This document shows, in pieces, positions 6,478 to 47,481 of a stretch of 64,000 bases of DNA. A program made the position numbers and the translations under genes. Below the pieces are notes generated by a model. That model was not told the DNA's origin and did no database searches. It was given only the letters and a program-made list of their open reading frames with translations. Numbering within the stretch: the first letter of the stretch is position 1; the number at the start of each line of letters is the position of its first letter. The DNA lies in assembly GCA_934489945.1 (NCBI GenBank), contig CAKSSY010000003.1, forward strand, positions 21 through 64,020, read 5' to 3'. This DNA is from an uncultured Eubacteriales bacterium. GTDB taxonomy: Bacteria > Bacillota > Clostridia > Oscillospirales > CAG-272.

Positions 6478-6511
6478 AAAATGTTTGAAATTTGAAAGAA
6501 GGTGTGGTATA

Positions 6512-7228
6512 ATGATAGATGCAAACGGACTTGATTTTTCCGAACTGAATGACAGAATACGGGCGGACGATTCGGATTGTGTCATTCGGAAGTGTCTGGG
6601 ACAGCGTTTTCTTGCCGCGGGCATGAGCGGTAAACATATTGTTATTGACGGAATTCCCGGAAATGCACTTGGAGCTTATCTTGCGGGAGCCGATATTACC
6701 GTGAACGGCAACGCACAGGATGCCGTTGGAGATACTATGAACAGCGGCGAGATCGTAATTCACGGAAATATCGGCGATGCGGCAGGATATGCTATGCGAG
6801 GCGGTGCAATTTATGCTTGCGGAAACGCCGGGTATCGGGCGGGAATTCATATGAAGGAATATAAAGACACCAAACCTGTCATCGTGATCGGCGGCAGAGC
6901 GGGAAGTTTTCTCGGGGAGTATCAGGCGGGCGGTATAATTCTTGTTCTTGGGCTTCATCGGGACGGAAAACCGATTGTCGGAAATTTTCCATGCACCGGT
7001 ATGCACGGCGGAAAAATGATTCTGCGCGGAAAAGCGGAGAGTGTTGTATTTCCGAAACAGGTCAATCTGCGAATTGCGGACAGTCGCGATATGACGGAAA
7101 TTGTGCCGTATATTCAAAAGTTCTGTTCTTATTTCGGATATGATGAGAGAGCTTTGATAGAAGATTCATATACGGTGATAACACCGGACAGCAAAAACCC
7201 GTATAAACAAATGTATGTCGCAAATTAG
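6512..7228 (+). CDS. GXGXG-motif protein, equivalent to the glutamate synthase large-subunit C-terminal beta-helix domain
   Basis: Start trimmed to MIDANGLDF after GAAGGTG. Repeated G-x-G motifs: VIDGIPGNALGAYLAGADITVNGNAQDAVGDTMNSGEIVIHGNIGDAAGYAMRGG. Confidence 0.85.
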   Translation: MIDANGLDFSELNDRIRADDSDCVIRKCLGQRFLAAGMSGKHIVIDGIPGNALGAYLAGADITVNGNAQDAVGDTMNSGEIVIHGNIGDAAGYAMRGGAIYACGNAGYRAGIHMKEYKDTKPVIVIGGRAGSFLGEYQAGGIILVLGLHRDGKPIVGNFPCTGMHGGKMILRGKAESVVFPKQVNLRIADSRDMTEIVPYIQKFCSYFGYDERALIEDSYTVITPDSKNPYKQMYVAN

Positions 7229-7247
7229 CATGGATCGGGAGGATAAC

Positions 7248-8462
7248 ATGAAGTATTCAAAAGACGAAGTATTGCAGTATGTCGCGGAGGAGGATGTGAA
7301 ATTTATCCGCCTTGCGTTTTGCGATGTTTTCGGAAAGCCGAAAAATATATCCATTATGCCGGATGAATTGCCCCGGGCATTTGAGACGGGGATTGCCTTT
7401 GATGCTTCGGCAGTTTCGGGTTTCGGCGGCGAGATTCATTCCGATCTCTTCCTTCATCCCGATCCGGCAACGCTGTCGGTGTTGCCGTGGAGACCGGAGC
7501 ATGGCAAGGTGGTTCGGATGTTCTGTACGATTCGGCGTGCGGATGGAAGAGAGTTTGAAGCCGACACCAGAACGATTTTGAAAAAAGCGATTGCGGATGC
7601 CGAAGCGGAAGGCGTGTACTTCTCATTTGGGTCGGAAATGGAATTTTACTTGTTCCGACGGGATGAGAACGGAGAACCGACTGCTGTTCCGTATGACAAC
7701 GCCGGATATATGGATATTGCACCGGAGGATAAGGGCGAGAATGTTCGCCGTGAGATATGCCTTACGCTTGAGAGAATGGGAATAAAGCCTGAAAGTTCGC
7801 ATCATGAGGAAGGACCCGGACAGAACGAAATTGATTTTCGTTACTCCGATCCGCTTACTGCGGCAGATAATGCCGTCACCTTCCGAACCGTTGTCAATAC
7901 GGTTTCGGCACGAAACGGATTGTATGCGGACTTTTCGCCAAAGCCGATTTCCGACAAAGCCGGAAATGGAATGCACATCAATATTTCCGTCAAAGAAAAT
8001 GATAAGTCTGATATGTTGCCGCGTGTGATTGCGGGAATATTGAATCATATTGCGGAAATTACGGTGTTTTTGAACACGGACGAGAAATCGTATGAACGGT
8101 TTGGAAAATGCAAGGCACCGCGCTATATTTCATGGTCGGCGGAGAATCGTTCGCAATTGATTCGTATTCCGGCGGCGACCGGGGAATACCGACGTGCCGA
8201 ATTGCGTTCTCCCGATCCGATGTGCAATCCTTATCTTGCTTTTGCACTTTTGATACGGGTGGGACTGGACGGAATCCGAAAGGCATCGGTATTGCCTCCT
8301 CCAACCGATCTGGATCTTTATCACGCGGACAATGAAGTGACTGAAAAGCTCGGGCTTTTGCCACAAACGTTGTCGGAAGCCGGAAAAGCCGCATCGGAAA
8401 GTGAATTTATTCGGAGCTGTTTGTCCCGGAGTGTTCTCGCACATTATACAGATACAAAATAA
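7248..8462 (+). CDS. glnA: Glutamine synthetase, short type I-like (about 404 aa)
   Basis: ATG 7248 follows GGGAGGA. Starts MKYSKDEVLQYVAEEDVKFIRLAFCD. Contains HHEEGPGQNEIDFRY, NGMHINIS and SWSAENRSQLIRIP. Confidence 0.85.
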   Translation: MKYSKDEVLQYVAEEDVKFIRLAFCDVFGKPKNISIMPDELPRAFETGIAFDASAVSGFGGEIHSDLFLHPDPATLSVLPWRPEHGKVVRMFCTIRRADGREFEADTRTILKKAIADAEAEGVYFSFGSEMEFYLFRRDENGEPTAVPYDNAGYMDIAPEDKGENVRREICLTLERMGIKPESSHHEEGPGQNEIDFRYSDPLTAADNAVTFRTVVNTVSARNGLYADFSPKPISDKAGNGMHINISVKENDKSDMLPRVIAGILNHIAEITVFLNTDEKSYERFGKCKAPRYISWSAENRSQLIRIPAATGEYRRAELRSPDPMCNPYLAFALLIRVGLDGIRKASVLPPPTDLDLYHADNEVTEKLGLLPQTLSEAGKAASESEFIRSCLSRSVLAHYTDTK

Positions 8463-8491
8463 TTTCAATATCGGACAAGGAGGTACGTGAC

Positions 8492-9076
8492 ATGGATTTT
8501 TCGGAACATATTTACAGTGTTCTTCTTGTTTCGTCCTCCGAAAAACTGAATCAATCTTTTTGCGCACTGTTGCCGCAGGAAAAATATCATCCGGTGGTTT
8601 GTGTTCCCGACACGGCGAGTGCCGGACGGAGTCTTTTGGAAAACAGTTATGATATTGTAATTATCAACACGCCGCTCTCCGATGACTTTGGGACGCGGCT
8701 TGCCATTGATATTGTAAATAACGGATCGACGGGAGTTTTGTTGTTGGTAAAGGCAGAACAATATTCGGAAATCAATGCGATGGTGTCTCCGTATGGCGTT
8801 CTGACACTTTTGAAACCGACAACGGCACAGATGATAGCGCAGTCTTTGGTACTTCTTTGCGGAACACGGGAACGTCTTCGACGGATGGAGCAGAAGGCAG
8901 CATCTCTGGAAGAAAAAATGCTGGAAATCCGAACCGTCAACCGCGCAAAATTGTTGTTGATCGAACAACTGAAGATGACGGAAGCGGAAGCGCATCGTTT
9001 CATTGAAAAACAGGCAATGGACAGATGCGTGACACGCAAAAGTATTGCCGAATCCATAATATCTACATATAAATAA
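8492..9076 (+). CDS. ANTAR-domain RNA-binding antiterminator with a degenerate receiver-like N-terminal domain (NitR/AmiR/NasT-like)
   Basis: The C-terminus, EIRTVNRAKLLLIEQLKMTEAEAHRFIEKQAMDRCVTRKSIAESII, fits the ANTAR helix pattern. The N-terminal fold is receiver-like, but has SSSE where the DD pocket should be and DIVIIN where the phospho-acceptor Asp should be. Confidence 0.75.
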   Translation: MDFSEHIYSVLLVSSSEKLNQSFCALLPQEKYHPVVCVPDTASAGRSLLENSYDIVIINTPLSDDFGTRLAIDIVNNGSTGVLLLVKAEQYSEINAMVSPYGVLTLLKPTTAQMIAQSLVLLCGTRERLRRMEQKAASLEEKMLEIRTVNRAKLLLIEQLKMTEAEAHRFIEKQAMDRCVTRKSIAESIISTYK

Positions 9077-10693
<1,617 letters not shown>

Positions 10694-10721
10694 AAGAGCC
10701 AATCCTCTGTCGTTCATAATT

Positions 10722-10760
10722 AAAAGCACCTCTCATGATTTTTTGGGGGTGCTTTTATAT
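10722..10760 (+). terminator. Intrinsic terminator after pyrG
   Basis: AAAGCACC...GGTGCTTT stem followed by TATATT. Begins 29 nt after the pyrG stop. Confidence 0.55.
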
Positions 10761-10895
10761 TGTCCGGGGGAAGAAACCGTGTTTGCCAACAGGGAAAATG
10801 TGAGAGGAGCGGGAATTTCGATGAAAAAAACGACGAAAAAGCCACGACATTTTTCTTGAATTGTTTAAGATTGTCGGAGTTGCCGGAGATTACAT

Positions 10896-10924
10896 TTGCA
10901 ATAAACGAATGATTTTGTTATAAT
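10896..10924 (+). promoter_or_regulatory. Promoter of the LysM/CAP gene
   Basis: TTGCAA, 17 nt, TATAAT. Confidence 0.45.
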
Positions 10925-10979
10925 GGTGACGATGTCGCAACGCGGCAGAACATATCAGAATAAAGGAGAGGTTTGCAGA

Positions 10980-32911: not shown

Positions 32912-35008
32912 ATGAAACAGTATTTTTCTTTGAGGTTGTATCTGGAGGGACTCAAACGGATTAAGATTGCCGGGATTGCGGCATCTATTGCCGTGATCTT
33001 GCTGAATGCCGCACTTCCTGTTATCCAAATTATGGATAATAAATGGAGCTATTTTCGCGGAGAGCGGAGCGTGACTTCTGTCGCGCCGGGCGAATTTATG
33101 CCGTTTAGCTGTCTGTTGCTGATTTTTTCGGCAGTGTTTGTTTATTCTATGTTTTCCTATCTGAATGAGAGAAACCGTTCCGACTTCTTTCATGCGATTC
33201 CGCAAAAGCGGTTATGTGTGTACCTGAGTTTTTTGGCAGCGATTCTTTCTTGGATTGCCGCAATTTTGCTTGCCAGTACGATTGTCAATACCGTTCTTTA
33301 CGGATTTGCAAAATTTTATACCGTGAATCTTTCGGTGATTTTTGTTACGCCGTTGGTGTATCTGCTCGGATGCACTATGATTGTCGGATTTATGGCACTT
33401 GCCATGACCTTGACGGGAACGGTTGTGTCCAATTTGCTGATCTTCACGCTTTTGCTTCTGTTTGTGCGTACAGTGGGACAGATCTTTATTACCTGTTTGG
33501 AAGAATTGGCTCCTGTTGTGGAGATCGAAAGTTCGTTTCTGCGCTTTTTCCGAATCGATTTCTTTCTTCCGTTTTCGTTGTTCACGGTTTCGTTGAGCAC
33601 GGCAGATAACTGTTTTGGCAACGGACCTTTGTTGCTGTATTCGTTGGGAGTGGCGTTGTTATTGCTCGTTCTCGGTGGCGTGGTTTATGTTTTCCGCAGA
33701 AGCGAGACGGCTACCAAGAGCGCACCGAATAAAGTGATGCAACATATTTACCGCAGTGCTGTAACGCTTCCGTTCTTTTTGTTGTTGGTTATGAATTATA
33801 TTTGCAACGGCTTTTTTGAGCCTTCGCTCATGACAATCCTTTTCATTTTGGCAATTCTCGTCTATTGCATTTTTGAATTGATGACGACAAAAAAGATTCG
33901 GATGCTTGTTAAGGCATTGCCGCTGATTGTGATACCGATTGCTCTGTCGGCTGTTTTTACGGGAGCGGTGTACCTTGAACGCAACGCAATTTTGAACGAT
34001 ATTCCCACTGTGGATGAAATTGCATCGGTTGGCACTTATACGCCAGACAGGGTATACAGTCACACCTATCATGAACTTCGAACCGTGGATTGTACCGTGG
34101 AAAACGAAGAGGCGAGGGCGATTGTGCAACGGGCATTGACAAAAACCGTAGACGAAATCCGCAACGAGCCACAATCTTATCCGGGACAAAAAGAAGAATA
34201 CTGGCAGACGATTACGGTCAGAATTTGTCTGAAGAACGGAAGGAAAATGGGCAGAGTAGTCAAGATGTCGGCAGATGAGTACAAACGCTTCCATGAATTG
34301 CTTTTGGAATCGGACGAATATATCAATGGGTATCTGGCATTGCCGGACAGTCGCGAGGTCGATTCTGTCCGCACAGCCGGTTTTTCGGTCAACGATGAGG
34401 CGGCAAAGCGTTTGTGGGCAAGTTTTCTTCTGGAATACAGCGCACTGACAAAGGAACAGAAAATCGCGTATCATGATATTGATGAATATAATGATACGGC
34501 ATCGGTCGGAACACTCATTGTGGACGGTATGTATCGGTTCGTCTCGTTTCGTTCTCAGTATCGGATATATTATGAATACACGCCGAAAACCGCGCAGATG
34601 TTGCTTGAGGCGAAGGAACAATGCGGATGGTTATTCTTTGATACCGAAGAAATCGATGTTTATAAAAAGTGCTTAGCGGACACAGAGCGAAGTTATGACA
34701 TTCGGTTTGAAATGACATATTTGAACGGGAAATATGTAGAAGAGGTCGATTTCTTTGTGGGAAACAGCAAAACGCTTCCGAGAGAGGATGTCATCGGAAT
34801 TTTGGACTTTATCACCGCTCGTGCCGGGATTTCTTCCTATTCGGCAGACAAAAATCTGGTGCACCTTTCGATCGGCTTTTATTCGGCAGACAAAGATATC
34901 GGAGCGATGAGCACACTGGATGAGAGTGACGGAATTGATGCGGTTGTGTTTTTCCGTGACGAAGATCTTGAGGAACTGCGGGCGAAACTGGAACCGCTTG
35001 TCAAGTAA
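32912..35008 (+). CDS. Large membrane protein: ABC-2-like permease region (about 340 aa, multiple TM segments) fused to a C-terminal soluble domain of about 350 aa and unknown function
   Basis: Follows the ABC ATPase. The N-terminal half is hydrophobic. The C-terminal half (from about DIPTVDEIASVG) is hydrophilic, and I recognise no family. Confidence 0.65.
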   Translation: MKQYFSLRLYLEGLKRIKIAGIAASIAVILLNAALPVIQIMDNKWSYFRGERSVTSVAPGEFMPFSCLLLIFSAVFVYSMFSYLNERNRSDFFHAIPQKRLCVYLSFLAAILSWIAAILLASTIVNTVLYGFAKFYTVNLSVIFVTPLVYLLGCTMIVGFMALAMTLTGTVVSNLLIFTLLLLFVRTVGQIFITCLEELAPVVEIESSFLRFFRIDFFLPFSLFTVSLSTADNCFGNGPLLLYSLGVALLLLVLGGVVYVFRRSETATKSAPNKVMQHIYRSAVTLPFFLLLVMNYICNGFFEPSLMTILFILAILVYCIFELMTTKKIRMLVKALPLIVIPIALSAVFTGAVYLERNAILNDIPTVDEIASVGTYTPDRVYSHTYHELRTVDCTVENEEARAIVQRALTKTVDEIRNEPQSYPGQKEEYWQTITVRICLKNGRKMGRVVKMSADEYKRFHELLLESDEYINGYLALPDSREVDSVRTAGFSVNDEAAKRLWASFLLEYSALTKEQKIAYHDIDEYNDTASVGTLIVDGMYRFVSFRSQYRIYYEYTPKTAQMLLEAKEQCGWLFFDTEEIDVYKKCLADTERSYDIRFEMTYLNGKYVEEVDFFVGNSKTLPREDVIGILDFITARAGISSYSADKNLVHLSIGFYSADKDIGAMSTLDESDGIDAVVFFRDEDLEELRAKLEPLVK

Positions 35009-37886: not shown

Positions 37887-38228
37887 ATGGATATGATTCA
37901 GGCTTTTACAAACGAGCAGCTCAAGGAAAATGTTCCTGAGATCAATGTGGGTGACACCGTCCGTGTCTATAACAAGATTAAAGAGGGTACCCGCGAAAGA
38001 ATTCAGATTTTTGAAGGCACGATTATCGCTAAGCACGGCGGCGGAATTTCCGAGACCTTTACCGTAAGACGTATTTCTTACGGTGTCGGTGTTGAAAAGA
38101 CTTTCCCGCTTCACTCTCCCAATGTGGATAAGGTGGAAACGATCCGCTCCGGTAGAGTCAGACGTGCAAAACTCTATTACCTGCGTGACAGAGTCGGTAA
38201 GGCGTCCAAGGTGAAAGAGAAAATCTGA
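37887..38228 (+). CDS. rplS: 50S ribosomal protein L19
   Basis: [62 protein letters not shown]. Confidence 0.97.
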
Positions 38229-38247: not shown

Positions 38248-38277
38248 AAGAGGTGTGCTTTCGGCATACCTCTTTTT
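38248..38277 (+). terminator. Intrinsic terminator after rplS
   Basis: AAGAGGTGTGC-tttcg-GCATACCTCTT followed by TTT. Ends only 16 nt before the DUF5131 start codon. Confidence 0.7.
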
Positions 38278-38293
38278 CCGTATCGGAGGAATT

Positions 38294-39013
38294 ATGGAGT
38301 ATTCTTGGAATCCGTGGCACGGTTGTCACAAACTCAGTCCCGGCTGTAAACACTGCTATGTTTATCGGATTGATGCGGCACACGGAAGGGAACCGGGCAA
38401 GGTAACACGAAATGCCGATTTTGACCTTCCGTTGCAACGGGGAAGAAGCGGATATAAAATACCGTCCGGAAGTCTTGTGTATACCTGCTTTTCCTCGGAC
38501 TTTTTGGTAGAGGATGCCGATGGATGGCGACCGGAGGTTTGGGATTGTATGCGGCAACGACCGGATTTGGATTTTCTTTTTATTACGAAACGTATCGATC
38601 GCTTTCTTTCTTGTGTGCCGGATGATTGGGGAGACGGTTATCCGAATGTGAGTGTCGGTTGCACCTGCGAAAATCAAAGTATGGCAGAATACCGACTGCC
38701 GTTTTTTCTTGAGGCACCGATCATTCACAAATTTATCGTTTGTGAACCGCTTCTTGAGAGGATTGATTTTACCGATATTCTGCACGATCCCGGAAAAATC
38801 GAACAAATCACTGTGGGAGGCGAATCGGGTCCCGAGGCGAGAGTGTGCGATTACGATTGGGTTCTGGGGATTCGCGATTTCTGTATTTCGGCAAACGTTC
38901 CGTTTCGGTTTCGTCAGACCGGAGCAAACTTCCGGCGAGGTGGGAAAGTTTTCCGAATTCGAAGGGAATTTCAACATTCTCAGGCAAAAAGAGCGGGCAT
39001 TGATTGGCATTAA
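38294..39013 (+). CDS. Phage Gp37/Gp68-family (DUF5131) three-Cys-motif protein
   Basis: ATG 38294 follows GGAGGA. Starts MEYSWNPWHGCHKLSPGCKHCYVY. Contains VGGESGPEAR, characteristic of the family. Confidence 0.75.
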   Translation: MEYSWNPWHGCHKLSPGCKHCYVYRIDAAHGREPGKVTRNADFDLPLQRGRSGYKIPSGSLVYTCFSSDFLVEDADGWRPEVWDCMRQRPDLDFLFITKRIDRFLSCVPDDWGDGYPNVSVGCTCENQSMAEYRLPFFLEAPIIHKFIVCEPLLERIDFTDILHDPGKIEQITVGGESGPEARVCDYDWVLGIRDFCISANVPFRFRQTGANFRRGGKVFRIRREFQHSQAKRAGIDWH

Positions 39014-39087: not shown

Positions 39088-39116
39088 TAGACTTTTTCAG
39101 GAAAATCATATATAAT
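39088..39116 (+). promoter_or_regulatory. Candidate promoter of the hydrogenase operon
   Basis: TAGACT (4/6 match to the -35 consensus), 17 nt, TATAAT (39111-39116). Confidence 0.35.
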
Positions 39117-39248: not shown

Positions 39249-39743
39249 ATGAAAAAGAAATTGACGACTGTCACATTCAAGGGAACCGAAGAACAGGAGA
39301 AGAAATTGCTTGCCGTTATCGACGAGTATAGGGGCATTGAGGGAAATCTTCTTCCTGTTCTCCAGGGGGCACAGGATATTTACGGATATCTTCCCATTGA
39401 AGTGCAGAAAATCATCGCCAGAGAGTTGGATGTGTCGCTGACCGAAATTTACGGTGTCGCATCTTTCTACTCCCAGTTTAAGCTTAACCCCAACGGAGAG
39501 GTTGCGATTGCCGTTTGCTTGGGGACCGCTTGCTATGTTAAGGGATCCGGAAAAATCGCCGATAAGGTGACGGAAATTGTCGGAGTGGCTCCCGGTGAGA
39601 CATCTTCCGATGGCAAATACAGCTTTGAAGCAACCCGTTGCATCGGCGCATGTGGTCTGGCTCCTGTTTTGACCGTCAACGGAGATGTATACGGACGTCT
39701 TTCGCCCGCAGACATCGAAGGCATTATTGAAAAATACAGATAA
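39249..39743 (+). CDS. hydC: NuoE-like [2Fe-2S] subunit of bifurcating [FeFe]-hydrogenase (HydC)
   Basis: Thioredoxin-like 2Fe-2S motif: CLGTACYVKG...CIGACGLAPV. RBS AGGAGG. Confidence 0.88.
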   Translation: MKKKLTTVTFKGTEEQEKKLLAVIDEYRGIEGNLLPVLQGAQDIYGYLPIEVQKIIARELDVSLTEIYGVASFYSQFKLNPNGEVAIAVCLGTACYVKGSGKIADKVTEIVGVAPGETSSDGKYSFEATRCIGACGLAPVLTVNGDVYGRLSPADIEGIIEKYR

Positions 39744-39753
39744 GCGGAAAAGT

Positions 39754-40116
39754 ATGAAGATTCACGAGATTTCCCGGCTTCTTGATGCCAAAATCTGCTG
39801 CTGTGAAGAAAAGGCAGACAGTGAGGTCAGTTCGGCTTGCGGAAGCGACATGATGAGCGATGTACTTGCCTTTGTAAAGGATCAGGCGGTTCTGCTCACC
39901 GGTCTTGTCAATTCGCAGGTGATTCGTACCGCGGAAATGATGGATATGCGTTGCATTGTCTTTGTTCGGAACAAACAGCCGACCGAGGAGATGCTCGCAA
40001 TTGCCCGTGACAGCGGTATTGTTGTACTGACAACCCCTATGAGAATGTACGAGGCGTGCGGAGTTCTATACTCAAGCGGTCTCAACAGTCTGAAGGTGGC
40101 TGCCCGTCATGAGTGA
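39754..40116 (+). CDS. DRTGG-domain protein (copy 1)
   Basis: 120 aa. The pattern AVLLTGLVNSQVIRTAEMMDMRCIVFVRNKQPTEEMLAIARDSGIVVLTTPMRMYEACGVL fits the DRTGG fold. Weak RBS. Confidence 0.6.
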   Translation: MKIHEISRLLDAKICCCEEKADSEVSSACGSDMMSDVLAFVKDQAVLLTGLVNSQVIRTAEMMDMRCIVFVRNKQPTEEMLAIARDSGIVVLTTPMRMYEACGVLYSSGLNSLKVAARHE

Positions 40117-40531
40117 GCCGCTTGTCTATACATTTCAGGTCGACGGTGATAATTTTACCTCGGCGGGCGAGGCTTCGGTTAAGATGAAGAAGAATCTCCG
40201 GATGCTGGCAATTTCGCCGGATATCATTCGCCGTGTTGCCATTGCCATGTATGAAGGAGAAATCAATATGGTGATTCATGCGGGCGGCGGCGTCGCTACG
40301 GTCAGTGTGTATCATGACCGTATAGAGATTGTACTTGACGATCAGGGACCCGGCATCGCCGATATTGATCTTGCTATGAAAGAGGGCTTTTCCACGGCTC
40401 CCGAGAACATCAGGAACCTTGGCTTCGGAGCGGGTATGGGACTTCCGAATATGAAACGGAACACCGATACTATGAATATTGAGTCGACACTTGGTGTGGG
40501 AACCAAGATCACCATGACGGTGAAGATCTGA
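40109..40531 (+). CDS. Small GHKL/HATPase_c protein (RsbW/SpoIIAB-size Ser/Thr-kinase-like)
   Basis: G1 box DQGPGI and G2 box GFGAGMGLP. 140 aa. Overlaps the upstream gene by 8 nt. Confidence 0.75.
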   Translation: MSEPLVYTFQVDGDNFTSAGEASVKMKKNLRMLAISPDIIRRVAIAMYEGEINMVIHAGGGVATVSVYHDRIEIVLDDQGPGIADIDLAMKEGFSTAPENIRNLGFGAGMGLPNMKRNTDTMNIESTLGVGTKITMTVKI

Positions 40532-40564
40532 TGTTGTCCGATCTCCTGAAAGGAAGAATGGAAA

Positions 40565-41839
40565 ATGACATCCTATCAACATTCGGTATCCTTAAAGCTC
40601 GATAAATGCCGCGGTTGTACACATTGTCTGAAACATTGTCCGACCGAGGCAATACGGGTTCGTGACGGTCACGCGGTTATCAATGCCGCGCGGTGTGTGG
40701 ATTGCGGACAGTGTATTCAGTATTGTCCGCATCAGGCGAAAAAGGCGGCATCCGATAAATTGTCTGATATTTCAAAGAGCAGGTGGAAGATTGCTTTACC
40801 GGCTCCCTCGCTGTTTGGACAGTTTGACAATCTGGATGATATCGACTATGTCTTGCAGGGACTTTTGGATTGTGGTTTTGACGACGTATATGAAGTCGCA
40901 CGTGCGGCAGAACTGGTTTCCGATTATACTAGAAAATATATGAAGGAAGCAAAGCCGGAATTGCCTGTCATTTCGTCGGCGTGCCCCGTGGTCGAACGAC
41001 TTATCGGGTTGCGCTATCCGTATCTTGCCGAACACCTTCTGCCGATTTTGCCGCCTATGGAGATTGCGGCAATGGAGGCGAGAAAGGAAGCGGTGGAGAA
41101 ACATCCGGAATTGTCTGCCGATGATGTTTGCGTCGTGTTTATTTCGCCGTGTCCCGCAAAGGTCAGTTACGTTAAAAATCGTGAACCTGATAAAAAATCC
41201 AATGTGGATTTTGTCGTCTCCATCTCGGATGTGTATTTTGAACTTCTCGGCGTAATGAAAAAAGCCATTACTCCTATTCCTGTTTCCCGAACCGGCATGA
41301 TTGGTCTCGGATGGGCGAGCACGGGCGGAGAGGCAACCGCGATTTTCAATGACAAATATCTGGCAGCAGACGGCATTGATAATGTTGTTCATGTCCTGGA
41401 AGAACTTGACAACGGGTCTTTCCCGGAGTTAGAGTTTATTGAACTTAACGCTTGCGCCGGTGGTTGCGTCGGTGGCGTTATGAATGTAGTTAACCCTTTT
41501 ATTGCCAAGGCACGTTTGCGCTCATTACGCCGGTATCTTCCGGTTTCTCAGAACTGGGCGGCATTGGATGGAGCAGAAGTGCCGGGTGAGGTGATCCGTC
41601 ATGCCGATTTTCGATATGAGTCGGTCTCATCTTTTGGTCATGATCGCAAGGAATCCATGTGCATGATGAGCAGGATGGAGGAAATCTGTAAAGAACTTCC
41701 CGGAATCGATTGCGGTTCCTGCGGAGCACCGACATGTCGCGCATTTGCTACTGATATTGTCAGAGGTGAGGCTGCGATTGGTGAGTGTCCCGTTTTGTGG
41801 AGAAAAAACAGGGAAGAAACGGATCACAGCGAAAGTTGA
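40565..41839 (+). CDS. [FeFe]-hydrogenase-like protein, putative sensory type (HydS-like, no PAS domain)
   Basis: Two ferredoxin motifs (CRGCTHCLKHCP, CVDCGQCIQYCP). Degenerate H-domain motifs SSACPVV, ISPCPAKV and ELNACAGGCVGGV. C-terminal LPGIDCGSCGAPTCRAFA is an RnfB-type 4-Cys motif. Confidence 0.8.
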   Translation: MTSYQHSVSLKLDKCRGCTHCLKHCPTEAIRVRDGHAVINAARCVDCGQCIQYCPHQAKKAASDKLSDISKSRWKIALPAPSLFGQFDNLDDIDYVLQGLLDCGFDDVYEVARAAELVSDYTRKYMKEAKPELPVISSACPVVERLIGLRYPYLAEHLLPILPPMEIAAMEARKEAVEKHPELSADDVCVVFISPCPAKVSYVKNREPDKKSNVDFVVSISDVYFELLGVMKKAITPIPVSRTGMIGLGWASTGGEATAIFNDKYLAADGIDNVVHVLEELDNGSFPELEFIELNACAGGCVGGVMNVVNPFIAKARLRSLRRYLPVSQNWAALDGAEVPGEVIRHADFRYESVSSFGHDRKESMCMMSRMEEICKELPGIDCGSCGAPTCRAFATDIVRGEAAIGECPVLWRKNREETDHSES

Positions 41840-41848
41840 GGGAGCGGT

Positions 41849-42178
41849 ATGAAAGTAAGCGAACTTGCCGAAAAATTGAAATTGGATTGTCTTGCTGTGC
41901 CGATGCCGGAGCGTGAGATTACCGGAGCTTATGCAGGAGATCTCCTGAGTTGGGTGATGGGACGCGCAGAGGCAAACTGTGTTTGGGCGACAATCATGAA
42001 TAATATCAATGTTCTGGCGGTTGCGTCGTTGGCGGATGTCGCGGTTGCGGTGATTTGCGAGGGCTGCGAGGTGTCAGACGAGATTGTACAGACCGCTATG
42101 AAAAAAGGCGTAAATCTTATGCGGACGGAAATGTCTGTGTATGAATTTTGCGTCGCAGTTTCAAGGTATATTTCATGA
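41849..42178 (+). CDS. DRTGG-domain protein (copy 2)
   Basis: 109 aa. GAYAGDLLSWVMGRAEANCVWATIMNNINVLAVASLADVAVAVICEGCEVSDEIVQTAMKKGVNLMRT. RBS GAGGGAG. Confidence 0.6.
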   Translation: MKVSELAEKLKLDCLAVPMPEREITGAYAGDLLSWVMGRAEANCVWATIMNNINVLAVASLADVAVAVICEGCEVSDEIVQTAMKKGVNLMRTEMSVYEFCVAVSRYIS

Positions 42179-42906
42179 ATCGGTATTCATACGACCTTCA
42201 TGTTCACTCCTGTCTTTCCCCCTGTGCCGATAACGACATGACGCCGAATAACATAGCGGGAATGGCGGCGATTAAGGGACTTGGGATTGTGGCACTTACC
42301 GATCATAATTCAACCAAAAACTGTCGTGCATTCTTTGCTGCGGCGAAGAGGAACGGCATTGTTCCCGTTGCCGGCATGGAAATGACGACGGCGGAGGATA
42401 TACATATTGTTTGTCTCTTTCCTACGTTGGAAAGTGCCGAGGATTTTGACAGGGAATATCAACAATATCGGATTTTTTATCCGAACCGACCTGAGATTTT
42501 CGGAGATCAGCTCATTTTGGATGAAAATGACGAGGTGATAGGGCGGGAAGAAAATCTTTTGCTCAACGCCTCTACACTTTCGGTGCCGGATGCCGTTCGA
42601 TTGCTTGACCCATATGGAGCCGTTGCGTTTCCTGCTCATATTGACCGGGAGGAAAACGGAATGGTTGCGGTACTCGGTTGTATTCCGGAGAAACCGCATT
42701 TTGATTGTGTGGAATTTCGGGATAAATCCGCAATCGGCGAATATACGGAAAAATATAGATTGAAGGATAAAAGAATTCTTACCGATTCCGATGCTCATTA
42801 TCTTTGGGATATCAGTGAGGCAGAAAATTTTCTGATGTTGGAGGATGAGCCGTACAGTTCGGCACTCGTGAGAGGGTCGCTGATGCGGTTCCTTGCCGGA
42901 AAGTGA
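42175..42906 (+). CDS. PHP-family metal-dependent phosphoesterase
   Basis: Starts MNRYSYDLHVHSCLSPCADNDMTP, with TDHNS and DSDAH motifs. ATGA overlap with the upstream stop. Confidence 0.8.
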   Translation: MNRYSYDLHVHSCLSPCADNDMTPNNIAGMAAIKGLGIVALTDHNSTKNCRAFFAAAKRNGIVPVAGMEMTTAEDIHIVCLFPTLESAEDFDREYQQYRIFYPNRPEIFGDQLILDENDEVIGREENLLLNASTLSVPDAVRLLDPYGAVAFPAHIDREENGMVAVLGCIPEKPHFDCVEFRDKSAIGEYTEKYRLKDKRILTDSDAHYLWDISEAENFLMLEDEPYSSALVRGSLMRFLAGK

Positions 42907-43451
42907 AAGAAATTTCTCTTAATATTCTTGACATTGTGCAGAATTCGTTGAAAGCCGGTGCAACCCGCATCGAAATATTTATTGATGAGACCGAAACAAC
43001 ACTTACCTTTTCGGTGCATGATAACGGTTGCGGAATGAGTGAGGCGTTTCTCGCCCACGTGACCGAGCCCTTTACGACTACGCGCACAACGCGTCGTGTC
43101 GGATTGGGGCTTCCGCTTTTGAAAATGGAGGCGGAGATGACGGGCGGTACATTTTCCATTCAGTCCCGTAGCGAGAAGGAATACCCCAATCACGGAACAA
43201 GTGTTACCGCAATGTTCCGAAAGGATAATATCGACTGTATTCCGCTCGGTGATATTGTCGGAACGGTTTGCGTTCTTGTGAGCGGCATCGGAGAGGAAAA
43301 TATTTTGTTTGAACATCGTATGCCGAATGGGAAGGTAAGGCTTTCCACCGCAGAAATGCGGGAAGTCCTGGGCGATATTCCGCTTGCTTCTCCGGAGGTT
43401 GTAAATTGGGTAAGAGAGTATCTGAAAGAGGCATATCAAATTTGTAGTTAA
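42903..43451 (+). CDS. GHKL/HATPase_c protein (second, 182 aa)
   Basis: N-box NILDIVQNSLKAGA, G1 DNGCGM, G2 GLGLPLL. GTG start with GTGA overlap. Confidence 0.75.
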   Translation: MKEISLNILDIVQNSLKAGATRIEIFIDETETTLTFSVHDNGCGMSEAFLAHVTEPFTTTRTTRRVGLGLPLLKMEAEMTGGTFSIQSRSEKEYPNHGTSVTAMFRKDNIDCIPLGDIVGTVCVLVSGIGEENILFEHRMPNGKVRLSTAEMREVLGDIPLASPEVVNWVREYLKEAYQICS

Positions 43452-43480
43452 AAATTCAATATAAAGAAAGGATTTCTTAC

Positions 43481-43852
43481 ATGAAAACACTGGAAGAACT
43501 TTCCGCGATCCGTGATCGCATGAAAAGCAAGGTCGCTTTGCGCGAGGAAAGCAATGAAATCAGAATTGTTGTGGGTATGGCAACCTGCGGAATTGCTGCA
43601 GGAGCAAGACCGGTTCTGAATACTTTTGTCGAGGAAGTCGACAAGGCAGGTCTTGTTGGTACGGTTTCCGTGACACAGACGGGTTGTATCGGTATGTGCC
43701 GCTTTGAGCCGATTGTTGAAGTTATGAAAGCCGGAGAAGAGAAGGTTACATACGTCAAAATGACTCCCGATAAGGCAAAGGAAGTTATGGAAAAGCATAT
43801 CAAGGGCGGCAAACCCGTCGTTGAATATACAATAGGCAACGCCAAAATATAA
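43481..43852 (+). CDS. Thioredoxin-like [2Fe-2S] ferredoxin (HydD-like small subunit)
   Basis: GMATCGIAAGA...TGCIGMCRFEPIV. 123 aa. Lies immediately upstream of hydB. Confidence 0.8.
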   Translation: MKTLEELSAIRDRMKSKVALREESNEIRIVVGMATCGIAAGARPVLNTFVEEVDKAGLVGTVSVTQTGCIGMCRFEPIVEVMKAGEEKVTYVKMTPDKAKEVMEKHIKGGKPVVEYTIGNAKI

Positions 43853-43865
43853 GGAGGAAAAAAAC

Positions 43866-45659
43866 ATGGTACGTTCACATGTACTTATTTGCGGCGGTAC
43901 CGGTTGTACATCGTCGGGTAGTGTAAAGATCCGCGAAAAAATGACAGCCGAACTGGAAGCCGCAGGTCTTTCTGATGAGATCAAGGTTGTCCAGACCGGT
44001 TGCTTTGGTCTTTGTGCAAACGGTCCCATTATGATCGTATATCCGGAGGGTACCTTTTATTCCAAGGTGTCGGAGGATGATGTTCACGAAATCGTGACCG
44101 AGCATCTTCTTAAGGGAAGAGTTGTCAGCCGTCTGGTTCATAAGGATGCCGGCGAGGATGGCGGGCTTCGTGAAATGGCTCTTTCCGAGACTACTTTCTA
44201 TAAGAGACAAAAGAGAGTCGCGCTTCGAAACTGCGGCGTTATCAACCCCGAAAATATCGACGAGTACATCGGAACCGACGGTTATCAGGCACTCGGTAAG
44301 GTTCTGACCGAAATGACACCTCAGGAAGTGATTGATACCATCAAGGCATCCGGACTTCGCGGAAGAGGCGGAGCCGGATTCCCGACAGGAAACAAGTGGC
44401 AGTTTGCCGCAAACCAGCCGAAGGGAAAGAAATATGTTTGCTGCAACGCTGACGAGGGCGACCCCGGCGCGTTCATGGACAGATCGGTTCTTGAGGGCGA
44501 TCCGCATGCCGTTCTTGAGGCTATGGCAATTGCCGGTTATGCGATTGGCTCGGATGAAGGTTATATTTATGTCCGCGCCGAATACCCCATTGCCGTTCAT
44601 CGCCTTGAAGTTGCTATTCGCGAGGCTCACGAATACGGTCTGCTTGGCAACAATATTTTCGGAACCGACTTTTCCTTTGACATTCACCTTCGCCTTGGTG
44701 CAGGTGCATTCGTCTGCGGAGAGGAAACGGCACTTATGACCTCTATTGAAGGTAAACGCGGTGAACCGCGTCCCCGTCCTCCGTTCCCGGCAATCAAGGG
44801 TCTTTTCGGTAAACCTTCCATTTTGAATAACGTTGAAACATATGCCAATATTCCGCAGATTATCCTTAAGGGAGCAGACTGGTTTGCGTCTATGGGTACC
44901 GAGAAGTCCAAGGGTACAAAAGTATTCGCGTTGGGCGGAAAAATTACCAATACCGGACTTGTTGAAGTTCCTATGGGAACGACGCTTCGGGAAATCATTG
45001 AGGATATCGGCGGTGGTATCCCGAACGGCAAGAAGTTTAAGGCGGCTCAGACCGGCGGACCTTCCGGCGGTTGTATTCCCGCGTCTCTTATCGATACGCC
45101 GATCGATTATGACAACCTGCTTGCTATCGGTTCCATGATGGGGTCCGGCGGACTTATTGTCATGGATGAGGATACCTGTATGGTGGATATTGCCAAGTTC
45201 TTCCTGGAGTTTACCGTGGATGAATCCTGTGGAAAGTGTACCCCTTGTCGTATCGGTACAGTTCGCCTTTTGGAAATCCTCAATAAGATTACAAGCGGAA
45301 ACGGTGAGATGGAAGACCTTGACCGTCTTGAGGAACTTTGCAATTACATTAAGGCGGGTTCTCTTTGCGGACTTGGTCAGACGGCACCCAACCCTGTTCT
45401 TTCTACACTTCGTTATTTCCGTGATGAGTATATTGCTCATATCGTAGATAAGAAGTGTCCTGCTCATGTGTGCAAGAATCTGATGCAATTCAAGATTGAT
45501 GCTGATAAATGCCGCGGATGTACAGCTTGTGCAAGAAAATGCCCTGTTGATGCGATTGAAGGTGCGGTCAAGACTCCGCATACCATTGATTCTGCAAAGT
45601 GTATCAGATGCGGTGCTTGTATCGCAACGTGCAAGTTCGGCGCAATTTACAAGGATTGA
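43866..45659 (+). CDS. hydB: NuoF-like NAD(P)H/FMN-binding subunit of bifurcating [FeFe]-hydrogenase (HydB)
   Basis: N-terminal 2Fe-2S (CGGTGCTSS...TGCFGLCANGP). FMN/NADH part GLRGRGGAGFPTGNKW. SLBB part CGKCTPCR. C-terminal CRGCTACARKCP and CIRCGACIATC. Confidence 0.92.
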   Translation: MVRSHVLICGGTGCTSSGSVKIREKMTAELEAAGLSDEIKVVQTGCFGLCANGPIMIVYPEGTFYSKVSEDDVHEIVTEHLLKGRVVSRLVHKDAGEDGGLREMALSETTFYKRQKRVALRNCGVINPENIDEYIGTDGYQALGKVLTEMTPQEVIDTIKASGLRGRGGAGFPTGNKWQFAANQPKGKKYVCCNADEGDPGAFMDRSVLEGDPHAVLEAMAIAGYAIGSDEGYIYVRAEYPIAVHRLEVAIREAHEYGLLGNNIFGTDFSFDIHLRLGAGAFVCGEETALMTSIEGKRGEPRPRPPFPAIKGLFGKPSILNNVETYANIPQIILKGADWFASMGTEKSKGTKVFALGGKITNTGLVEVPMGTTLREIIEDIGGGIPNGKKFKAAQTGGPSGGCIPASLIDTPIDYDNLLAIGSMMGSGGLIVMDEDTCMVDIAKFFLEFTVDESCGKCTPCRIGTVRLLEILNKITSGNGEMEDLDRLEELCNYIKAGSLCGLGQTAPNPVLSTLRYFRDEYIAHIVDKKCPAHVCKNLMQFKIDADKCRGCTACARKCPVDAIEGAVKTPHTIDSAKCIRCGACIATCKFGAIYKD

Positions 45660-45675
45660 GAAAGGAGAACCACCC

Positions 45676-47436
45676 ATGGAAATGTTAAATATAAAGATCA
45701 ATGGTGCGGACTATCAGATTCCCGCCGGTTCCACCGTGTTGGAAGCCGCACGTGTCGCTCATGTTGATATCCCCACCCTCTGCTATCTGAAGGATATCAA
45801 TGAAATCGGTGCTTGCCGTCTCTGCCTTGTTGAGGTCGCTGAAATGCGCGGTCCTCAACTCGGACCTTACAGAATGGTAACTGCCTGCGTATACCCTGTT
45901 ACGGAGGGCATGAATATCATCACCAACTCCGAAAAGATCCGCAATTCGAGAAAACTCAATCTTGAACTGGTTCTTTCCAATCATAATAAGAAGTGTCTTT
46001 CCTGTATTCGCAGCACCACGTGCGAGCTTCAGAAGCTCTGCAACGAATACGGAGTAGAGGAGACTCACTTCAGTGGCAAGACAACTCCTACCGAAATTGA
46101 CGATTCGTCGGTTTCCATTATTCGTGATAACAGTAAGTGTATTCTTTGCCGTCGGTGTGTTGCCGCTTGTAAGAATATGCAGGGAATCGGCGTGATCGGT
46201 TCCATTAATCGTGGCTTTGATACCGTTATCGGCACCGGATTTGAAAAGGAACTCGCTTCTACGTCTTGCGTCAACTGCGGTCAGTGTATCGTCGCTTGTC
46301 CGACCGGCGCACTCTATGAGAGAGACGATACCGCCAAGGTGTTTGCCGCTCTGAATGATCCGAAAAAACATGTTGTGATTTGCACGGCTCCTTCTGTCCG
46401 CGCAACACTCGGAGAATGCTTCGGCTATGCTCCCGGAACCGATGTGGAAGGTAAGATGGTTACCGCTCTCAAGAAACTCGGTTTTGACGGTGTGTTCGAT
46501 ATGAATACAACCGCTGACCTTACCATTATGGAAGAGGCATATGAAGTTCTTGATAGATTGAATCATGGCGGAAAACTTCCGCTTATTACATCCTGCTCGC
46601 CCGGATGGGTTAAGTACTGTGAGCATTATTTCCCGGAGTTTACCGAAAATCTTTCCACTTGTAAATCTCCTCAACAGATGTTCGGTGCTATCGTCAAGAC
46701 ATACTATGCACAGAAGAAGGGCATTGATCCTAAAGATATCTTTATGGTTTCTGCCATTCCCTGTACAGCCAAGAAATTTGAAGTCGGTCGCGACGGCGAG
46801 TCTGCGGCAGGCGTTCCTGATGTCGATGTTGCTATCACGACTCGTGAAGTCGGCAGAATGATTCAGACTGCCGGTATCCAGTTTACAGAGCTTGAAGACA
46901 GTATGTATGATGATGCGTTCGGAATCGGAACCGGTGCCGGTGCCATCTTTGGCGCAACGGGCGGTGTTATGGAGGCGGCACTTCGTACTGCGGCGGAGGT
47001 TATCCTCGGTAAGCCTTTGGAAAAGGTGGAGTTTACCGATGTTCGTGGTCCTGAAAAGGTTCGTTATGCTACGTATAAACTCGGCGATGTCGAGTTGAAG
47101 GTGGCGGTAACATCCGGAACCAAGAATGCAAAGGAACTTCTCAGAAAAATTGAAGCCGGTGAAGTCAATGTTCAGTTCGTGGAGATTATGGCTTGTCCCG
47201 GTGGATGTGTTAACGGCGGCGGTCAGCCTTATCAGCCCGCAACGGTTCGGAACAATACCGATCTGGCTTCCAAGAGGGCAACTGTGCTGTACAATGCTGA
47301 TGCCAACAAGCTCGCACTTCGCAAATCTCATGAGAATCCGGTTGTTCAGACTCTTTATAAGGAATTTTTGGGTGAGCCGAACAGCCACAAGGCACATGAG
47401 ATCCTTCACACGCACTATGTAAAACGCGGACTTTAA
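45676..47436 (+). CDS. hydA: [FeFe]-hydrogenase catalytic subunit (HydA, M3-type N-terminal cluster domains)
   Basis: ATG 45676 follows AAAGGAGAA. 2Fe-2S part CYLKDINEIGACRLC. HNKKCLSCIRSTTC. Two 4Fe-4S motifs. H-cluster motifs TSCSPGW, IPCTAKKFE and EIMACPGGCVNGGGQP. Confidence 0.93.
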   Translation: MEMLNIKINGADYQIPAGSTVLEAARVAHVDIPTLCYLKDINEIGACRLCLVEVAEMRGPQLGPYRMVTACVYPVTEGMNIITNSEKIRNSRKLNLELVLSNHNKKCLSCIRSTTCELQKLCNEYGVEETHFSGKTTPTEIDDSSVSIIRDNSKCILCRRCVAACKNMQGIGVIGSINRGFDTVIGTGFEKELASTSCVNCGQCIVACPTGALYERDDTAKVFAALNDPKKHVVICTAPSVRATLGECFGYAPGTDVEGKMVTALKKLGFDGVFDMNTTADLTIMEEAYEVLDRLNHGGKLPLITSCSPGWVKYCEHYFPEFTENLSTCKSPQQMFGAIVKTYYAQKKGIDPKDIFMVSAIPCTAKKFEVGRDGESAAGVPDVDVAITTREVGRMIQTAGIQFTELEDSMYDDAFGIGTGAGAIFGATGGVMEAALRTAAEVILGKPLEKVEFTDVRGPEKVRYATYKLGDVELKVAVTSGTKNAKELLRKIEAGEVNVQFVEIMACPGGCVNGGGQPYQPATVRNNTDLASKRATVLYNADANKLALRKSHENPVVQTLYKEFLGEPNSHKAHEILHTHYVKRGL

Positions 47437-47444
47437 GGTCGTTT

Positions 47445-47481
47445 AAACGGGTGTATTCTTTGAAATACACCCGTTTTTTTT
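47445..47481 (+). terminator. Intrinsic terminator after hydA
   Basis: AAACGGGTGTATT-ctttga-AATACACCCGTTT followed by TTTTTTTG. Confidence 0.85.

Follow-up and report, generated by a model that had tools for sequence, protein, structure and literature searches.

A separable cassette of DRTGG, GHKL ATPase, group D hydrogenase and PHP genes in a predicted electron-bifurcating hydrogenase operon

Since 2012, group D (M2e) [FeFe] hydrogenases have been described upstream of bifurcating hydrogenases, with a "kinase" encoded between them. A table by Carere et al. (2012) lists the M2e 'D' hydrogenases TTE0887, Cthe_0335, Athe_1292, Csac_1857, Cphy_3798 and Teth39_1463; judged by locus-tag numbers, all but Teth39_1463 stand at a distance of five genes from the gene that opens the listed bifurcating-hydrogenase cluster. 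Land et al. (2020) described a 'histidine kinase-like ATPase' flanking TamHydS and asked how the signal is transduced (PMC8163306). A paper of April 2026 from that group calls the identification of group D interaction partners 'critical' (PMC13104023), which agrees with the statement of an original prediction on the DNA studied here that the signalling path has not been worked out. The synteny is known, the neighbourhood is familiar to specialists rather than categorically new, and the pathway is an acknowledged open question. We analyzed a window of 64,000 nucleotides from contig CAKSSY010000003.1 (assembly GCA_934489945.1) of an uncultured Eubacteriales bacterium of the lineage CAG-272, in which six genes for DRTGG, GHKL ATPase, hydrogenase-like and PHP proteins stand inside a hydrogenase operon. 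The list of open reading frames (ORFs) gives ten tightly packed genes on the + strand, 39249-47436, in the order hydC–DRTGG1–HATPase1–HydS–DRTGG2–PHP–HATPase2–hydD–hydB–hydA. They are listed here with their presumed transcript signals and with domain calls from Pfam and NCBIfam scans of the window ORFs.

39088..39116, + strand: sigma-70-like promoter candidate, TAGACT-17-TATAAT, upstream of hydC (consensus match only)
39249..39743, + strand: hydC, NuoE-type thioredoxin-like [2Fe-2S] subunit of the predicted bifurcating hydrogenase (PF01257, 161 bits)
39754..40116, + strand: DRTGG1, 120 aa, small DRTGG/HPrK-N-like protein (PF07085, 25.8 bits, cut-off 25.2)
40109..40531, + strand: HATPase1, 140 aa, SpoIIAB/RsbW-like stand-alone GHKL protein (PF02518, HATPase_c; PF13581, HATPase_c_2)
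40565..41839, + strand: HydS, 424 aa, group D (M2e) putative sensory [FeFe] hydrogenase (two Fer4 domains, Fe_hyd_lg_C, C-terminal PF04060)
41849..42178, + strand: DRTGG2, 109 aa, paralogue of DRTGG1 (Hpr_kinase_N, 24.3 bits, cut-off 24; PF07085, 18.9 bits, below cut-off)
42175..42906, + strand: PHP, 243 aa, PHP-family metal-dependent phosphoesterase (PF02811)
42903..43451, + strand: HATPase2, 182 aa, GHKL ATP-binding domain followed by a conserved C-terminal domain about 70 aa long (PF02518; PF13589, HATPase_c_3)
43481..43852, + strand: hydD-like thioredoxin-like [2Fe-2S] ferredoxin (PF01257, 24.3 bits; NF041612, 48 bits)
43866..45659, + strand: hydB, NuoF-type flavin mononucleotide (FMN)/NADH subunit with N-terminal 2Fe-2S and C-terminal 2x[4Fe-4S] domains (Pfam/NCBIfam)
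45673..47436, + strand: hydA, catalytic [FeFe] subunit, group A, NADH-dependent/bifurcating type (NF040763, the NCBIfam 'NADH-dependent [FeFe] hydrogenase A6', 852.9 bits, cut-off 765; Fe_hyd_lg_C, 311 bits; Fe_hyd_SSU)
47445..47476, + strand: intrinsic-terminator-like hairpin, 13-bp stem followed by a T run, at the operon end (consensus match)

The host operon fits the build of HydABC and other Bfu enzymes, with a NuoE-like C subunit, a NuoF-like B subunit bearing extra clusters and an [FeFe] A subunit; from this subunit make-up the enzyme is assigned as an electron-bifurcating hydrogenase. The ORF list, domain scans and sequence agree with the original prediction on the six ORFs and their motifs, on the flanking hydC, hydD, hydB and hydA genes, and on three gene overlaps. 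These overlaps, read from the sequence, are 8 nucleotides between DRTGG1 and HATPase1 (ATGAGTGA at 40109-40116), 4 nucleotides between DRTGG2 and PHP (ATGA, 42175-42178) and 4 nucleotides between PHP and HATPase2 (GTGA, 42903-42906). Searches of the six proteins against Pfam and NCBIfam at E<=0.01 found no helix-turn-helix (HTH), receiver, HisKA/DHp or sigma-factor domain, as had been stated, and no STAS or PP2C domain.

Published work on the structural genes bears on one member of the set. In Caldanaerobacter, whose operon reads hydC-tte0891-hydD-hydB-hydA, the gene between hydC and hydD was carried in synthetic operons as 'hypothetical protein Tte0891', and the purified recombinant enzyme consists of HydA-D only, with HydD a true subunit (PMC4694547). 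The enzyme of A. mobile was likewise purified without the 'HisK' encoded at the HATPase2 position (PMC8880783). The equivalence of HATPase2 with 'HisK' and Tte0891, like that of the regions TTE0887-0894 and Cthe_0335-0342, is one of position, locus-tag spacing and annotation, not of sequence. That the protein at this position is not a stable enzyme subunit in either organism fits a transient regulator. The name NiFe-HydABCSL, used for the A. mobile enzyme, was considered as a possible mention of a sensory HydS and rejected, since this is a NiFe enzyme whose S and L are hydrogenase subunits. A literature search found no paper on the DRTGG or PHP genes of this operon or on a tested mechanism. 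Three findings described below were not found in the searchable literature: the five-plus-one anatomy of the module, the exchange of HydS for a CBS domain pair, and the wider association with Bfu enzymes.

A gene-neighbourhood census had been set in advance as a check on the association of the six genes with hydABC. It used one genome per species; at least 570 genomes have a relative, and 80 loci were used. ORFs from all six frames of each locus were searched with the window proteins to assign gene order. The best 120 homologues are all close relatives, and more distant contexts were sampled through cluster representatives and a profile of distant HATPase2 members. Overall the comparison takes in about 170 related loci. 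The six-gene run is intact in 67 of the 80 species-level loci, and 40 of the 80 have all ten genes in the order of the window. Contig ends truncate nine of the remaining 13 loci, and in two more the deviation comes from the way in which overlapping ORFs were ordered. Two loci (L009 and L025) have hydC after PHP. HydS stands alone in L036, the sole such case among the 80 genome loci; there the HydS homologue (57-1382, 56% identical to the window protein) begins just inside the contig end and is followed not by DRTGG2, PHP and HATPase2 but by an unassigned 133-aa ORF and then opposite-strand genes (DUF4867).

The six-gene arrangement is far from chance. The start codon overlaps or abuts the preceding stop for DRTGG1 and HATPase1 in 80% of 75 loci, for DRTGG2 and PHP (gap of zero or less) in 92% of 76 loci, and for PHP to HATPase2 and HydS to DRTGG2 in 73% and 60% of loci, respectively. 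The conserved run, together with overlaps at 60-92% by pair, shows that the module is under selection as a unit.

That unit is a five-gene cassette, DRTGG1–HATPase1–HydS–DRTGG2–PHP, plus HATPase2. The single six-gene unit of the original prediction gives way here, because the cassette moves relative to hydC-HATPase2-hydD-hydB-hydA. It stands upstream of that set in L081/L082 and L171, and on the opposite strand, divergent from it, in L083/L084 (Hydrogenoanaerobacterium). In L172 other genes, with that for homoserine O-succinyltransferase as separator, lie between the cassette and hydC-HATPase2-hydD. The PHP gene of this last locus is split into ORFs of 89 aa (the N-terminus) and 192 aa at 4181-4985, by a frameshift or as a pseudogene. 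Locus-tag spacing in the cited thermophiles puts HydS ahead of the first gene of the listed hydrogenase cluster by five genes, an arrangement like that of L081 and L171; the window and its relatives differ in having hydC ahead of the cassette, so that the module lies inside the structural operon. This placement after hydC is limited to the clade of the window, which consists of metagenome-assembled genomes (MAGs) of Oscillospirales type from gut and rumen. PHP and HATPase2 are fused in three divergent lineages, one represented by the Deltaproteobacteria MAG protein MBM4387392.1. Placements and fusions together indicate that HATPase2 belongs either with hydC and hydD or with PHP. A rule that hydD always follows HATPase2 was tried and dropped, since several CBS-type loci (below) have hydC or the A subunit next. 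One locus, L089, has the six genes and a hydD-like gene (6736-10928) followed by genes for a membrane protein and malic enzyme; no hydB or hydA was found within about 6.7 kb upstream of the cassette or about 9.6 kb downstream of hydD. This locus suggests that the hydD-like ferredoxin may at times be a member of the signalling set and not of the enzyme.

A variant of the module lacks HydS. Locus L088 reads Rex, DRTGG1, a 321-aa protein, DRTGG2, PHP, hydC, HATPase2, hydD, hydB, hydA, and its 321-aa protein is HATPase1, with all motifs kept, carrying a CBS pair at the N-terminus. The gene directly upstream of this module (6255-6941) encodes a Rex-type redox-sensing repressor. As a query, that Rex protein had no match in any other locus, and the Pfam-annotated loci have no other Rex. 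A metagenome scan with the 321-aa protein gave at least 558 relatives, of which the best 80 loci were taken, all matching near full length. All of these 80 carry the CBS::HATPase1 module, and HydS is absent from every one; Pfam confirms the CBS pair in six proteins, that of L088 included. The dominant order is DRTGG1-CBS::HATPase1-DRTGG2-PHP-hydC-HATPase2-hydD-hydB-...-A, and in some loci the five genes sit between hydB and the A subunit. The A subunits of the seven CBS-type loci scanned are NuoG-like, with molybdopterin or Pyr_redox_2 domains and no [FeFe] H-domain. Many CBS-type loci (L102, L130, L136, L140, L145, L149, L152 and L162) have a duplicated NuoE/NuoF core, with two consecutive NuoE/NuoF pairs before the A subunit, hydC-HATPase2-hydD-hydB and then a second hydC-hydB; the A subunit is formate-dehydrogenase-like in L152 and has a shorter molybdopterin-type domain in L102. 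A pair of DRTGG1 and CBS::HATPase1 stands alone in L116 (9572-10927) and apparently in L150 (9420-10915), with DRTGG2, PHP, HATPase2 and Bfu genes not found in these loci of about 21 kb. The neighbors in L116 are rubrerythrin, ABC-transporter and polysaccharide deacetylase genes.

Because the CBS pair is fused to HATPase1 where HydS is absent, the sensor probably attaches at HATPase1. Fusion of HATPase_c to group C1 sensory hydrogenases has been reported (PMC11406978). Comparison of the two variants points to DRTGG1, HATPase1, DRTGG2, PHP and HATPase2 as the conserved core and to HydS as a replaceable input. The core is not hydrogenase-specific; the common denominator of its partners is the NuoE/NuoF/HydD part. 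Its target should therefore be something common to Bfu-type enzymes, that is, the NuoE/NuoF core, HydD, or their expression, and since the module also accompanies Bfu enzymes that are not hydrogenases, there with a CBS pair as input, the bifurcating core of the enzymes is itself the probable target. Gating of the circuit by H2 or redox state at the hydrogenase-like protein had been proposed for the window; the identity of HydS favors this, but as a fixed part of the circuit it does not survive the CBS-type loci.

The 424-aa protein is by its sequence a group D (M2e) putative sensory [FeFe] hydrogenase. Two [4Fe-4S] motifs in Fer4-type domains occupy residues 9-58, with cysteines invariant in 18 homologues. 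The H-domain (Fe_hyd_lg_C, 97 bits) has all three H-cluster cysteine motifs, PVISSAC140P, FISPC196PAK and ELNAC297AGGC301, which are invariant in the 18 homologues and align to the DdH motifs. PF04060 at residues 378-410 covers a Cx2Cx4Cx16C motif, C383GSC386GAPTC391...C408. The Pfam scan found no PAS domain in HydS. In an alignment to 1hfe, the Desulfovibrio enzyme, Ala139 falls at C299 of CpI, the proton-relay cysteine, and Ser194 at M353. The defining features of the M2e/group D type are those described for TamHydS (PMC8163306). TamHydS and the proteins TTE0887, Cthe_0335, Athe_1292, Csac_1857 and Cphy_3798 share with HydS the two N-terminal [4Fe-4S] motifs, the H-domain, the C-terminal Cx2Cx4Cx16C, the lack of a PAS domain and the active-site substitutions, and TamHydS is encoded with a bifurcating HydABC and beside 'histidine kinase-like ATPase' genes. 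By tblastn, HydS and TamHydS are 41.9% identical over 308 aa (E=1.6e-72), with shared signature motifs; the identity, about 42%, is approximate because the subject was a coding sequence damaged by optical character recognition, from the supplement of PMC13104023. The HydS family comprises at least 8000 clusters at 90% identity. TamHydS catalyzes reversible H+/H2 interconversion at low rates, has sensor-like properties, and shares the operon context, with a bifurcating hydrogenase alongside (PMC8163306). A role of group D enzymes as H2 sensors in vivo has been proposed in the literature.

By profile, DRTGG1 and DRTGG2 belong to the DRTGG/HPrK-N superfamily. DRTGG1 as a single sequence matches the DRTGG structure PDB 2ioj at E=0.0018, and a joint profile matches it at E=4.5e-7 and also hits 3l2b/3l31 (CBS-pyrophosphatase) and 1ko7. 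Designed 'Pizza' repeat proteins that topped the profile search of PDB were set aside as an artefact of summed repeats, no single stretch having passed. DRTGG2 cross-matches the DRTGG1 profile, and the two are clear paralogues; D32, S35, T49 and A84 do not vary in either paralogue or in either clade. The likeness to the CBS-DRTGG-CBS insert of CBS-pyrophosphatase and to the N-terminal domain of HPr kinase/phosphorylase is one of profile matches. The window proteins differ in being free-standing, at about 110-120 aa, and in their own invariant signature of D-x-x-S plus T; of the name-giving residues DRTGG1 keeps T49-G50, while the D-R position reads V-N. CBS and DRTGG domains occur together in CBS-pyrophosphatase and again in the HydS-less variant. 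DRTGG1 is paired with HATPase1 by position and by the 8-nucleotide overlap.

HATPase1 has SpoIIAB as its best NCBIfam match and aligns near full length with anti-sigma F (SpoIIAB) of PDB 1til at E=3e-4. Its N box YE.E.N, G1 box D.GPGI and G2 box GFGAGMGL are kept in both clades. The protein is SpoIIAB-like by sequence, and we propose a role for it as signal-receiving kinase. HATPase2 passes PF13589 (38 bits, cut-off 25) and has the N, G1 and G2 boxes of the Bergerat fold, with D10, N14, A18, D40-x-G42-x-G44 and G67-x-G69 invariant. Its family of 4551 clusters at 50% identity consists nearly entirely of proteins of about 180-190 aa, whose conserved C-terminal region carries I-D-x-x-P-L-G-D. Neither HATPase has room for a DHp domain ahead of the N box, and HATPase2 starts 13 residues before N14. 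An AlphaFold2 model of HATPase2 has a predicted local distance difference test score (pLDDT) of 91, and its top Foldseek matches are N-terminal fragments of MutL (LN40), PMS2 and MLH1 over 162-209 columns. Histidine-kinase CA domains align with the model over about 100-114 columns only. Because the MutL, PMS2 and MLH1 matches cover the longer stretch, HATPase2 may be an ATP-driven switch rather than a kinase.

Of the metal ligands of PHP, H9, H11, H44, E69, H155, D206 and H208 are invariant, and D43 and H77 are conserved at 90% or more, in 53 sequences drawn from the two clades. The solved proteins closest to PHP in sequence, profile and model are EndoQ, BAD_1165, RNase AM, the pAp phosphatase Cv1693 and TM0559. 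The PHP model was built from a five-sequence alignment and has a pLDDT of 75, with an unreliable C-terminal third. The N, G1 and G2 boxes of both HATPases and the metal ligands of PHP are conserved in at least 90% of sequences across two deeply diverged clades, and with these ATP- and metal-binding residues intact the parts of the module look catalytically competent.

Several described regulatory systems resemble the module in part. In the SpoIIAA-SpoIIAB-SpoIIE and RsbV-RsbW-RsbU partner switches, too, the gene for a small alpha/beta protein is directly followed by one for a GHKL protein of about 140 aa (SpoIIAB being the closest match of HATPase1), with a hydrolase nearby, and their logic of kinase, substrate or antagonist, and resetting enzyme would fit the window module. 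In spoIIAA-spoIIAB the gene for the antagonist precedes that for the kinase, an order mirrored by DRTGG1 and HATPase1. The differences are that DRTGG replaces STAS and PHP replaces PP2C, that no sigma factor is present here, that the window set has one more GHKL protein and one more DRTGG protein, and that HATPase1 reaches neither the SpoIIAB nor the RsbW cut-off. Domain annotation of the six proteins and of ten further related loci shows no STAS, SpoIIE/PP2C or sigma domain, and the Pfam lists of the module genes in those ten loci have no HTH or receiver domain either. Group C sensors (HydS of T. maritima and of R. albus, HfsB of Thermoanaerobacterium) are likewise hydrogenase-like sensors encoded beside a presumed target hydrogenase, and for hfsB there is genetic evidence of a regulatory role. 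They have a PAS domain, and their partner is the serine-phosphatase-type HfsC or a Ser/Thr kinase, in contrast to the DRTGG, GHKL and PHP proteins of the window; hfsABCD was accordingly rejected as an instance of the same module, its sensors being of group C (PAS) and its HfsC serine-phosphatase-like. The HoxBC-HoxJ-HoxA system of Ralstonia/Cupriavidus also joins a low-activity hydrogenase as H2 sensor to an ATP-binding kinase-type protein, but its sensor HoxBC belongs to the [NiFe] hydrogenases, its kinase HoxJ is a true histidine kinase bearing PAS and DHp domains, and its response regulator HoxA binds DNA; the window set contains no such parts.

We see roughly an even chance that the genes encode a partner-switch-like, non-transcriptional accessory control module for HydABC(D) with plug-in sensors. 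With no DNA-binding part, the module most likely acts on proteins, not on transcription. In such a scheme HydS, a group D enzyme that would bind H2 tightly and turn over slowly, would supply the sensory input and report H2 pressure or redox state to HATPase1, which would bind and probably phosphorylate its coupled partner DRTGG1, with the invariant Ser35 of the D-x-x-S motif, or Thr49, as candidate acceptor. The trio of DRTGG2, PHP and HATPase2 would reset or relay this state, with PHP as hydrolase and HATPase2 as MutL-like ATP-driven switch, and the output would fall on the NuoE/NuoF-type core and the HydD ferredoxin rather than on the H-cluster subunit. The PHP::HATPase2 fusions and the stand-alone pairs of DRTGG1 and CBS::HATPase1 (L116, L150) are hints of physical linkage.

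A number of observations weigh against this scheme. The C-terminal cluster of TamHydS is not reduced by H2, and the authors consider that their results challenge earlier signal-transduction hypotheses (PMC13104023). The SpoIIAB model TIGR01925 gives HATPase1 51.8 bits, far below its cut-off of 135, and the RsbW family gives 24 bits for a cut-off of 145; the DRTGG proteins are unrelated to STAS antagonists. The likeness of HATPase2 to MutL-type proteins is moderate (TMq 0.52-0.60 for the top ten, 0.49 the lowest), Asp10 is invariant where GHL ATPases have a catalytic Glu, four residues before the N-box Asn, and its C-terminal domain has no invariant Lys of the gamma-phosphate-sensing kind. PHP-type protein phosphatases (CpsB/YwqE) are absent from the PDB profile search of PHP up to E=10 and from the top 50 Foldseek matches of its model; with nucleotide and nucleic-acid phosphoesterases as the closest relatives, a phosphoprotein substrate is just one option. 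The kinase/phosphatase pair of the original prediction is thus not established: HATPase2 has no DHp domain and a MutL-like model, and the relatives of PHP are EndoQ, RNase AM and pAp phosphatase. A transcription factor encoded elsewhere might take part: Rex is encoded directly upstream in L088, and an 'AraC' regulator beside TamHydS (PMC8163306). Recombinant HydABCD assembled in E. coli without the DRTGG1-to-PHP cassette, with Tte0891 co-expressed (PMC4694547), so the cassette is dispensable for assembly. Every protein-protein and phosphoryl-transfer step in the scheme, the acceptor residue and the target are inferred from comparison.

Control might instead be transcriptional and work through an unlinked factor, with HATPase1 as an anti-sigma factor or other anti-regulator, DRTGG1 as its antagonist, and HydS altering hyd expression. 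The best family and structure matches of HATPase1, SpoIIAB and RsbW, would suit this, older literature takes sensory hydrogenases as regulators of gene expression (PMC3561251), and the Rex and 'AraC' genes named above could be read in its favor. The six window proteins include no sigma, HTH or Rex protein, though, and apart from Rex in L088 the Pfam-annotated loci have none. No Rex box lies upstream of hydC or near the hyd operon, the 6 operator matches in the whole window being at chance level (5.6 expected); Rex control as a general feature was rejected on the lack of an operator near hydC and the occurrence of a Rex gene solely in L088. The module also sits among structural genes in varying positions, even between hydB and the A subunit, and stoichiometric action on the enzyme fits such placement better than promoter control does. 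We consider transcriptional control unlikely. That HydS is a second catalytic hydrogenase or an electron-entry subunit, with the small genes as unrelated passengers, is very improbable: TamHydS does interconvert H+ and H2, but at low rates, the proton-pathway Cys is Ala in the window HydS too, purified enzymes hold HydABC(D) only (PMC4694547, PMC8880783), and the order and overlaps of the supposed passengers hold in 80 species, these genes persisting where HydS is gone.

Two further alternatives draw on the enzymology of the parts. GHKL ATPases of Hsp90/MutL-like kind and PHP could aid the insertion of FMN or Fe-S cofactors into the NuoE/NuoF core, or its assembly, with HydS as scaffold or redox partner. 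The module accompanies Bfu enzymes whatever their catalytic subunit and so must deal with the common core, and the HATPase2 model does resemble MutL-type ATPases. Against a maturation role stand the exchange of HydS for a CBS pair at one position, which is typical of signalling, the formation of HydABCD in E. coli described above, and the nature of SpoIIAB-like proteins as kinases and binders rather than chaperones; it appears quite unlikely. Signalling could also be nucleotide-based, with PHP degrading a small nucleotide (pAp, a linear dinucleotide or an ApnA-type alarmone), CBS and DRTGG domains sensing it, and the HATPases as ATP-binding switches in a circuit free of protein phosphorylation. 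This possibility gains weight from the solved relatives of PHP (pAp phosphatase Cv1693, RNase AM, BAD_1165 and EndoQ) and from the link of CBS to DRTGG: CBS pairs replace HydS, and among the matches of the DRTGG profile is 3l2b/3l31, the CBS-DRTGG regulatory region of CBS-pyrophosphatase, whose ligands are adenine nucleotides and diadenosine polyphosphates. The module has no nucleotide cyclase or synthetase, however, the similarity of PHP to its relatives is strongest in the N-terminal 80-100 residues of a protein with a modest model, and the invariant D-x-x-S and T of the DRTGG proteins fit ligand binding and phosphorylation alike; we think a nucleotide signal has a small chance of being the answer.

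For the partner-switch-like module we also put forward a broader and more tentative claim, which we hold possible but somewhat doubtful: that DRTGG-GHKL-DRTGG-PHP-GHKL is an undescribed class of signal transduction dedicated to post-translational control of the NuoE/NuoF (Bfu) core in enzymes of flavin-based electron bifurcation. Its sensors would be plug-in parts, a group D hydrogenase reading H2 in Firmicutes of gut and thermophilic kind and a CBS pair reading adenine nucleotides in bacteria of sediments and bioreactors, and its chemistry would be neither that of two-component systems nor that of classical partner switching.

Transcription of the window operon as one unit across all ten genes is plausible. 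No internal terminator comparable to the 47445-47476 hairpin was found within the ten-gene run, and hydC has an AGGAGG ribosome-binding site ahead of its ATG; the single transcript is offered as a hypothesis because the promoter and terminator calls are consensus matches, and the promoter scan gave 20 sites where 11.7 were expected. The operon is flanked by rplS (37887-38228) and a pyrH-frr-uppS-cdsA housekeeping block, the names being read from translations. Immediately upstream of the promoter-like site is a gene for a DUF5131 protein (PF07505, 149 bits; 38255-39013, + strand), which a 254-aa ORF on the opposite strand covers almost entirely. A 698-aa ORF at 32912-35008 (+ strand) matches no Pfam family at E<=1e-5; its N-terminal half, of about 370 residues, has many hydrophobic segments, its C-terminal half looks soluble, and it coincides with the sharpest change of AT skew in the window (-0.197, followed by +0.141). 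Scans for Rfam families and tRNA genes gave no matches in the 64-kb window. The + strand carries almost all of the long ORFs, and the first 2-kb bin is the only one without positive GC skew, from which the whole window appears to lie on one leading strand.

Electron-bifurcating hydrogenases set the release of H2 by fermenting bacteria in guts, rumens, digesters and sediments, and the feedback of H2 pressure on these enzymes has long been an open question. TamHydS, the only group D enzyme studied, had no known partners, and candidates can now be proposed: HATPase1 and DRTGG1 as receivers of the HydS signal, and PHP, DRTGG2 and HATPase2 as the side of reset and output, with Ser35 and Thr49 of DRTGG and Asp10 and Asn14 of HATPase2 as the residues singled out. 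The five-plus-one anatomy, the replacement of HydS by a CBS pair and the wider association with Bfu enzymes make the question directly testable. If the target is indeed the bifurcating core, the module would be the first regulatory handle on flavin-based electron bifurcation and would offer a lever for engineering the yield of H2 or ethanol.

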